The translations under genes and the position numbers were made by a program. From the NCBI GenBank assembly GCA_021432655.1, contig MU271222.1, positions 103,519 to 140,263 of the forward strand: a stretch of DNA of 36,745 bases, read 5' to 3'. Positions 9,955 to 11,003 of this stretch are shown piece after piece. The notes beneath the pieces were generated by a model, which saw only the letters and a list, made by a program, of their open reading frames with translations, had not been told where the DNA came from and made no database searches. Within the stretch, counting starts at the first letter, position 1. Each line of letters begins with the position of its first letter. Origin of the DNA: Atractiella rhizophila. Its lineage: Eukaryota.

Positions 9955-11003
9955 TCAAGCGAATCCGATGCCTTCGCAGGCTGTTGAATCCTGCTTTTAG
10001 AATCTACATCGGGGAGAACGAAAGCTCCTACCGTCACATCCGCAATGGGTGCTTCCGTCTGCACATTCCTACAACATGAAGCGTCCTTAGTCGGTCCCGA
10101 AAGAAAGAGCGAACGCATTTACACGACAGATAGTACAATCCCTCTTGGCGATTCCGACCCCTTCGCATGCTGATCAATCGCGTTGTTAAATTTCCTATAC
10201 CTACACCGTAGCGAATGCTCACCGTCACATCCGCATTGGAACGATCCATCAGCGCACTCCTGTTAAAAGCCGTATCAGACATCAGCTTCTAAAGTCGCTA
10301 TGAGGACGGACAAGGCAGATGGTGCAGTCTTTCTTCTTAAGCCCAATGTTCTGACAAGCTGCAAAATCGACCTGTCAAGTCTTCACATCTAGCGAAGAAG
10401 GAAGATGTACCGTCGCATCCACATTGAACGGATCCGTCAGCACAATCCTAAAGGCGTGAGAATGTCAGTTGGTGAGGTGAGGTGGGCACTCGATGCCACT
10501 CACACGACAAATGGTACAATCCCTCTTCACCTCCACAGGGGCAATTCCGATCCCGTCGCAGGCTGCGATAGGAAACATGAACACCGGATACTTGCTTGCA
10601 CGAAAGGGAAGGAAAGGAGTACCGTGACATCCACATTGGAAAGATCCGTCTGCGCACTCCTGTGGCGCGACAGTGTTAATACCAAAGGGATTGGATGGGG
10701 CGAGGACTGACAAGGCAGATGGTGCAGTCCCTCTCCTGCAGAGGTGCGATTCCAATGCCGTCGCAAGCTGCCATCGTCGACATCGAGTTTACATAAAACT
10801 CCAACGACGCAAAGGAGTACTTACCATGACATCCGCATTGCGTTGTGCCGTCCGCGCATTCCTACGATCGCAACAGCATGAACATCAGGGGGGGATAAAC
10901 GGAGAAGAGGACGGACGAGACAGATGGTGCAATCCCTTGCCTCGAGGGCGTTGGAGAGGGAGAAAGTGAGGGCCGCAATAGCGAGAGCGAAAGAGAACTT
11001 CAT
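9955..11003 (-). CDS. Secreted multi-core Cys-rich peptide precursor (Kex2-processed repeat protein-like), 168 aa, 11 exons
   Basis: Exons (minus): 11003-10917, 10861-10825, 10767-10712, 10659-10623, 10562-10504, 10447-10411, 10358-10312, 10259-10223, 10169-10123, 10068-10032, 9980-9955. All 10 introns are GT..AG, 51-60 nt; CDS 507 nt. Translation: MKFSFALAIAALTFSLSNALEAR DCTICLECADGTTQCGCHACDGIGIAPLQER DCTICLECADGSFQCGCHACDGIGIAPVEVKR DCTICRDCADGSVQCGCDACQNIGLKKK DCTICLECADGSFQCGCDACEGVGIAKR DCTICRECADGSTHCGCDACEGIGFA*. Confidence 0.9.
9958..10934 (-). repeat. Five tandem exon-intron modules (about 190-210 bp each) encoding the Cys cores
   Basis: Each module has a phase-0 intron after TIC[L/R], an invariant-length 37-nt exon ([E/D]CADGxxxCGC[H/D]) and a phase-1 intron. 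Exons are conserved and introns diverged. Confidence 0.9.

Follow-up and report, generated by a model that had tools for sequence, protein, structure and literature searches.

The stretch of DNA analysed here, hereafter the window, covers 36,745 nt of the Atractiella rhizophila contig MU271222.1 (GCA_021432655.1, positions 103,519-140,263), and the coordinates below are counted from its first letter. On its minus strand lies a gene for a cysteine-rich protein, wherein 11 coding exons running from 11003 to 9955 join into 507 nt, namely 168 codons plus TGA, and the spliced open reading frame (ORF) encodes 30 Cys (Table 1). The frame beyond exon 1 can be followed only after taking out ten short introns, each of the form GT..AG and of 55, 57, 52, 60, 56, 52, 52, 53, 54 and 51 nt (introns 1-10), and a YTRAY branch-point-like motif occurs in six of the ten, 7-27 nt from the 3′ end. 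An earlier note on this DNA had proposed ten canonical introns and a 168-aa product with 30 Cys, and joining the exons reproduced both; the TATA box that it had placed about 60 nt upstream was found as TATAAAAG, 60-67 nt before the ATG, and no upstream ATG occurs from this box to the start codon. A degenerate pattern describing the 37-nt exon matched five times in the window, at all five of these exons, versus no match in 100 shuffles.

Two of the introns, intron 2 (10768-10824, 57 nt) and intron 4 (10563-10622, 60 nt), have lengths that are multiples of three and hold no in-frame stop on the minus strand. Being frame-neutral, they would upon retention insert 19-20 residues and leave the frame intact, which is about the chance expectation.

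Contigs of public runs, probably RNA-derived, match the exon-intron structure

The gene model is borne out by contigs from four public runs (X3, X4, X5 and X6), which belong to four different studies and organisms. The joints in these contigs read CT..AC on the plus strand, that is GT..AG on the minus strand, and fall exactly at the predicted exon borders. The earlier note had proposed a check of the ten junctions in RNA, and all ten were found in the public-run contigs, each in at least two runs: introns 2, 3, 4, 5 and 6 are skipped in four of four runs, introns 7 and 8 in three, and introns 1, 9 and 10 in two. One-letter junction variants were seen for intron 4 in two runs and for intron 5 in one run, and a loose end of the X4 contig, 16 letters at 10122, matches the end of exon 10. 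What kind of run each one is had to be guessed, X4 and X6 being given as 'RNA?' and X3 and X5 as '?', no run was listed as an RNA holder of the sequence, and the unspliced locus is carried by the DNA runs X1 and X2 (0.77 and 0.71 of sampled words). The exact removal of ten GT..AG introns, together with one retained intron, strongly suggests that the joined contigs are RNA-derived, and their occurrence in four runs indicates transcription of the gene and splicing at the predicted sites.

The 3′ end of the model required one correction. The last exon had been drawn as ending at the stop codon (9955); exon 11 continues to 9933 and is followed by an intron in the 3′ untranslated region (UTR), which begins 22 nt past the stop codon and thereby defines a twelfth, non-coding exon (in X3, and slightly shifted in X4). 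The locus is a genuine, transcribed fungal minus-strand gene with 11 coding exons and one 3′-UTR intron.

Some features of the X3 contig stand apart from the gene model. Its identity to the window is ~99.6% over 9933-11367 (4 differences and 1 gap in the aligned pieces), the retained intron 1 and the promoter included, and only ~93% over 9400-9874 (29 differences and 7 gaps in 475 nt), where the 3′ end of a neighbouring MFS transporter gene and the spacer lie. The break in identity coincides with the 3′-UTR intron, and this mosaic may reflect a haplotype boundary or a chimeric contig. The X3 contig covering 10825-11367 also skips 11007-11057, GTGAGT...AG on the plus strand just upstream of the ATG, which could be a merged antisense or upstream plus-strand transcript, a strain deletion, or an assembly artefact.

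The predicted product is a leader followed by five six-cysteine units

The first 23 residues of the product precede five units, which measure 31, 32, 28, 28 and 26 aa and together make up 145 of the 168 residues. Every unit starts with DCTIC and carries the framework C-x2-C-x2-C-x6-C-x-C-x2-C, followed by a G-I-G-like hydrophobic tail. The five DCTIC repeats of 26-32 aa with this Cys spacing had been described in the earlier note and are present in the spliced product, as are the basic sites that it had listed before every core, the four residues preceding units 1-5 being LEAR, LQER, EVKR, LKKK and IAKR. The linker from the G-I-G tail to the next D-C varies in length and sequence, and its end is always Arg or Lys, with 9-13 residues from the last Cys of one unit to the first Cys of the next. 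Conservation among the units extends beyond Cys, with invariant non-Cys columns at 7 of 12 positions in the 37-nt exon and at 8 of 21 in the linker exon.

The N-terminus, also described earlier as signal-peptide-like, opens with M-K, after which come 14 hydrophobic residues and then S-N-A, whose -3 and -1 positions are small, and the hydropathy of the leader in 11-residue windows is 1.7-2.2 over residues 1-7. Judged by hydropathy and the -3/-1 rule alone, this segment would act as a signal peptide, most likely cut by signal peptidase after S-N-A at residue 19. The mature part would then have 149 residues, a calculated isoelectric point of 4.31 and 20% Cys, with neither Trp nor Tyr. No N-glycosylation site and no Ser/Thr-rich region of the kind typical of wall-anchored proteins is present in the product sequence. 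With the predicted cuts and trimming, the units would have 25-30 residues, a net charge of -3 to -5 and masses of 2.56-3.04 kDa in the reduced state. The five calculated average masses are 3041, 3030, 2564, 2584 and 2638 Da, and three disulfides would lower each by 6 Da. CxxC and CxC motifs together with 3-5 net acidic charges occur in each unit, and His in three of the five.

The array grew by tandem duplication and its units are under constraint

At the gene level, one unit spans three exons, with DCTIC and one further residue at the end of the first, Cys 3-5 in a middle exon of 37 nt, and Cys 6, the tail and the linker at the beginning of the third; the genomic period is 188-212 bp. The positions and phases of the introns are identical in all five units, which indicates that the array grew by tandem duplication; therefore, the duplicated element was a genomic unit of ~190-210 bp already holding two introns. 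These duplications date far back, since identity within an intron class is 53-56%, compared with 48% for shuffled controls, and that of the exon parts is 64-80%. The array is not detected by Tandem Repeats Finder because the introns have diverged, and tblastn of the spliced product found no second gene copy in the window.

Between units, the differences at codon positions 1, 2 and 3 are 0.172, 0.096 and 0.548, and the codon differences comprise 95 synonymous versus 59 non-synonymous changes. This third-position bias in the units, set beside nearly random introns, shows that purifying selection has acted on the peptide sequence. A reading of selection from the strain comparison with X3 was dropped, since conservation there is no lower in the promoter and in the retained intron 1 than in the exons.

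Beyond the array, the exon lying 3′ of the UTR intron has one frame that reads ...ACELIDGDGL, faintly like the AC[DE]GIG tail of the units, and this stretch may be a decayed partial unit.

No relative was found by exon-level queries

The homology queries were exon-level and unspliced, namely either P0001, a single unit translated across intron 2, which is in frame, or exon translations in alignment. Pfam returned no family at E up to 1 for two read-through ORFs covering units. In sequence and profile searches of PDB (P0001, A2, A3 and A5), nothing appeared below E = 2.5 and the few rows returned were unrelated; the best score in the ESM Atlas, 0.78, was not meaningful. A phmmer search against 1.84 billion representatives gave two hits, both unrelated repetitive proteins lacking the Cys pattern. 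A word-indexed search of 5.8 billion proteins gave five candidates in its 'longer' mode, none of which scored, and no candidate in its 'near' mode; the profile A2, whose 50 positions include intron-derived columns and make it blunt, gave 2204 candidates in the 'longer' mode, none at E <= 0.1. In the full-text literature, neither the motifs nor Cys-rich Kex2 repeat peptides yielded a relevant match.

Matches in other DNA were rejected. The 37-nt-exon pattern found five single chance matches in prokaryotic genome contigs, with neither repeats nor a nearby DCTIC. In metagenome contigs, a pattern one codon longer between GGN and CAN, which cannot match the present gene, gave ten single chance matches (L001-L010) in bacteria-like DNA. 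Two of these (L005 and L007, both at 1501-1536) encode the C-terminus of a bacterial regulator-like ORF, ...CPDCADGRFMQCGCD, whose CxxC-x7-CxC arrangement is a chance likeness to the fungal unit.

A close annotated homologue would still have surfaced in these searches, given the many 5-residue words and the two strong segments in each unit that it would have in common with the queries; distant relatives would not. The earlier suggestion of a new family agrees with all the homology searches, each made with exon-level queries; for this reason, the claim that the product belongs to no known family and represents a new one is only moderately supported.

Processing of the product: favoured model and rival explanations

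With about even confidence, we favour the explanation that the gene encodes a Kex2-processed repeat precursor that would release five secreted anionic six-Cys peptides. According to this model, the 168-aa product would enter the secretory pathway and lose its leader after residue 19, leaving a 149-aa acidic protein, and in the endoplasmic reticulum (ER) the six Cys of each unit could form up to three disulfides. A Golgi kexin-type protease would then cut after KR, KKK and KR and, less efficiently, after LEAR and LQER, and a Kex1-type carboxypeptidase would trim the basic tails, so that five related anionic peptides of 25-30 aa would be secreted. Secretion, cleavage, disulfides and any activity are all inferred from the predicted product. 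Its acidic, thiol-rich make-up appears to fit a metal- or cation-binding or a signalling role better than the classical cationic antimicrobial one.

The features that point to cleavage are the residues around the predicted sites. A basic P1 precedes five of five units, the inter-unit junctions are dibasic in three of four cases, and P4 is aliphatic at four of the five sites. Units 2/3, 3/4 and 4/5 are parted by KR, KKK and KR, so that four units (2-5) are interspaced by three canonical sites, and the junctions leader/1 (EAR) and 1/2 (QER) are monobasic and of the LxxR form. In addition, the basic residue before each D-C is kept while the linkers vary.

Several points weigh against this model. 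The P2 residues of LEAR and LQER, Ala and Glu, are poor for Kex2, so that the first two units might not be separated, or LEAR might be kept at the N-terminus. Four junctions use AGG as the P1 codon and one uses AAA, which suggests that the basic P1 was largely inherited by duplication rather than gained in five independent events. The signal peptide is predicted by a rule of thumb, the RNA origin of the joined contigs is inferred, the run kinds being guesses, and the X3 strain comparison is uninformative on selection. Conserved repeats with short charged linkers would equally fit an uncut tandem-domain protein.

Such an uncut protein, namely a secreted, acidic protein of 149 residues made of five disulfide-bonded mini-domains and serving, for example, in the matrix, in the cell wall or in ligand binding, with the basic residues as mere linker, is the main rival, possible but in our estimate rather unlikely. 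It would have the same architecture as the precursor, and only three of the five proposed sites are dibasic; the unusually high non-Cys conservation given above would suit folded domains, and the linkers are short. It would explain the same features except the constancy of the basic residue, which is itself largely inherited. What speaks against it is that the residue before the units stays basic though the linkers vary, that P4 is aliphatic at most of the sites, and that the product carries no anchoring signal, glycosylation site or Ser/Thr-rich region.

Another explanation, to which we give distinctly less credence, is that the units are thiolate metal-binding modules, whether cut or uncut, of an extracellular metallothionein-like or metal-carrier protein or of peptides binding Cu, Zn, Cd or Ca. 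The CxxC and CxC motifs, the acidic charges of each unit, the His residues in three of five and the Cys content of the mature protein would all be in keeping with it. However, the export leader would route the protein via the ER, an oxidising compartment in which Cys residues as a rule form pairs, metallothioneins show nothing like the G-I-G tail or the conserved Ile, Leu and Phe, and the Pfam search, metallothionein families included, gave no match at E up to 1. Metal binding could also be a function of the peptides that the favoured precursor model would release. Finally, that the gene is not real, being a chance exon chain or a non-coding transcript, is scarcely credible: although no homologue was found with the exon-level queries, this reading is contradicted by ten exact GT..AG junctions in the joined contigs of four runs, by a 168-codon frame that opens only after splicing, by between-unit variation dominated by the third codon position, and by five matches of the exon pattern where none are expected.

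Genomic surroundings

The surroundings of the gene were described by Pfam scans of 91 of the 109 ORFs of at least 90 aa in the 36.7-kb window, a scan in which short-exon genes could be missed (Table 1). The earlier note had called the product similar to a RiPP, a peptide made by the ribosome and modified after translation. This label found no support: among the scanned ORFs there was no DUF3328/UstYa protein, oxidase, methyltransferase or protease marking a RiPP cluster, and thus no tailoring-enzyme domain or neighbour of the ustiloxin type. The overall interpretation given there is accordingly partly supported, in that the hidden gene, its junctions and expression, the five-core build and the basic residues stand, and the RiPP-like assignment does not.

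The MFS gene ends ~300 nt from the stop codon of the Cys-rich gene, and one X3 contig bridges both 3′ ends; the two transcripts may overlap tail to tail. Nothing links this adjoining exporter to the peptide gene. In the ESM Atlas the ATG13 piece lies nearest to clusters from Ascomycota (score 0.90), a weak lead, and the shortness of the introns is likewise indicative of a fungus.

Table 1. Features of the Cys-rich gene and of its neighbours in the window (contigs X3, X4 and X6 as in the text)
Feature	Position	Strand	Remarks
TATA box	11063..11070	-	X4 and X6 contigs end downstream, at 11019 and 11005
Exon 1, 87 nt	10917..11003	-	ATG at 11003, hydrophobic leader, LEAR, first DCTIC plus one residue; junction to exon 2 in X4 and X6
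Intron 1, 55 nt, GTCCGT..TAG	10862..10916	-	skipped in X4 and X6; retained in X3 contig
Exon 2, 37 nt	10825..10861	-	Cys 3-5 of unit 1 (ECADG..QCGC.)
Exon 3, 56 nt	10712..10767	-	Cys 6 of unit 1, linker ending ER, DCTIC of unit 2; flanking junctions in 4/4 runs
Exon 4, 37 nt	10623..10659	-	Cys 3-5 of unit 2
Exon 5, 59 nt	10504..10562	-	Cys 6 of unit 2, linker ending KR, DCTIC of unit 3
Exon 6, 37 nt	10411..10447	-	Cys 3-5 of unit 3
Exon 7, 47 nt	10312..10358	-	Cys 6 of unit 3, linker KKK, DCTIC of unit 4
Exon 8, 37 nt	10223..10259	-	Cys 3-5 of unit 4
Exon 9, 47 nt	10123..10169	-	Cys 6 of unit 4, linker KR, DCTIC of unit 5
Exon 10, 37 nt	10032..10068	-	Cys 3-5 of unit 5
Exon 11, 48 nt	9933..9980	-	Cys 6 of unit 5, TGA at 9957-9955, 22 nt of 3′ UTR; joints 9980/10032 and 9874/9933
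3′-UTR intron, 58 nt, GTGAGT..AG	9875..9932	-	joint 9874/9933 (CT..AC) in X3; 9876/9936, one letter between, in X4
MFS transporter	8405-9655	+	PF07690, E = 2.6e-19; convergent
Second MFS piece	3753-4142		weak
Cytochrome b5 domain	7205-7609
PhoD-like phosphatase pieces	16780-17520
DUF3433	18944-20101	-
ATG13	23722-24873	-
Ornithine cyclodeaminase-type (OCD) domain	27621-28778	-

Significance

If the units are released, fungi would make multi-copy disulfide-rich peptides from one precursor, a design that is well known for defence and toxin peptides of plants and animals. The predicted peptides are small (~2.6-3.0 kDa) and hence synthesisable, so that their fold, metal binding and activity could be directly tested. 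The gene also illustrates that a transcribed secreted-protein gene can escape recognition when micro-exons carry each repeat; since the units are split over exons of 37-59 nt, catalogues built from annotated proteins, such as those of secretomes and effectors, would miss such genes. Fungi commonly have stand-alone proteins of the Kex2-processed repeat class, and just as commonly small secreted proteins rich in Cys; a micro-exon, five-fold array of anionic six-Cys units is unusual.

Comparison with known systems

The multi-core precursors of plants, such as those of cyclotides and the Impatiens Ib-AMP polyprotein, are ER-targeted and hold several six-Cys cores of ~20-30 aa, with just one residue separating Cys IV from Cys V. 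The present product shares with them the several copies of a Cys-rich peptide and the one residue between Cys IV and V, but they belong to another kingdom and to other enzymes, and the peptides predicted here are anionic and have no sequence or Pfam match. The loop sizes of 2, 2, 6, 1 and 2 would give a seven-residue ring, which we judge too small for a cystine knot, and no PDB match to a cystine-knot, cyclotide or other solved six-Cys fold was obtained with the exon-level queries.

In Cryptococcus, the long metallothioneins CMT1 and CMT2 likewise have a modular build of several Cys-rich segments, and the Neurospora type has segments of seven Cys; metallothioneins are cytosolic and are not known to have an export leader. 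The likeness of the present protein to these modular fungal metallothioneins lies in tandem Cys-rich segments with CxC and CxxC. They differ from it in Cys spacing, in a higher Cys content, in having few hydrophobic residues and in lacking a leader. No metallothionein family model matched the present gene, whose product carries a hydrophobic leader in place of a leaderless cytosolic build. The closest analogies would be, outside fungi, the plant multi-core precursors and, among fungi, the Cryptococcus metallothioneins, and neither is a sequence relative.

[quoted passage not shown] The available part of the SnTox3 preprint (10.1101/2020.05.27.120113) describes LxxR, KR and RR as Kex2 motifs at effector pro-domain junctions, with an aliphatic P4 preferred, just as the earlier note had stated for LxxR, and LEAR and LQER fit the LxxR form. 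These effectors are secreted Cys-rich fungal proteins cut at such motifs, as is predicted for the present product; they consist of one disordered pro-domain and one folded domain of ~100-200 aa, whereas here a 4-residue pro-piece would be followed by five mini-units.

In its build the product is close to the fungal Kex2-processed repeat proteins (KEPs), such as the precursors of yeast alpha-factor, Ustilago Rep1 and Candida Ece1 and the ustiloxin precursor UstA. As given in the parts of the two surveys consulted, the working definition of a KEP asks for a signal peptide, at least three repeats parted by dibasic sites (KR, RR, KK or RK) and repeats that make up at least 15% of the protein, the tandem units being at least 8 aa and at most 100 aa (Le Marquer 2019, PMC6339444; Umemura 2020, PMC7329392). 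The present gene has a heuristic signal peptide, five repeats of 26-32 aa and KR or KK at three of the four repeat junctions. The Kex2-processed repeat architecture claimed earlier agrees with this definition; two of the five sites (LEAR and LQER) are monobasic with Ala or Glu at P2. Common to both are the leader, a run of three or more short, nearly identical units taking up most of the protein, and the KR or KK between them. The differences lie in the six Cys of each unit, while the surveys (PMC6339444, PMC7329392), in the parts consulted, describe linear or cyclised low-Cys peptides, and the only Cys-bearing motifs noted in that part of PMC6339444 are two-Cys pheromone-like peptides. The present gene further differs from KEPs in having two monobasic junctions and no Ste13-type XA/XP dipeptide after the sites, ten introns, no DUF3328 gene found nearby and no sequence similarity to any library entry. 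Umemura 2020 (PMC7329392) counts 2560 stand-alone Kex2-processed repeat proteins without homologues.

Taken together, the best reading is that the gene encodes a previously undescribed, cysteine-rich variant of the fungal multi-core secreted-peptide precursor. More tentatively, it may be the first member of an undescribed fungal class, in which a kexin-processed polyprotein would release several anionic mini-peptides with six Cys (C-x2-C-x2-C-x6-C-x-C-x2-C) that could act extracellularly as metal or cation ligands or as signals, and which might be the fungal counterpart of the multi-core precursors of plants and animals.

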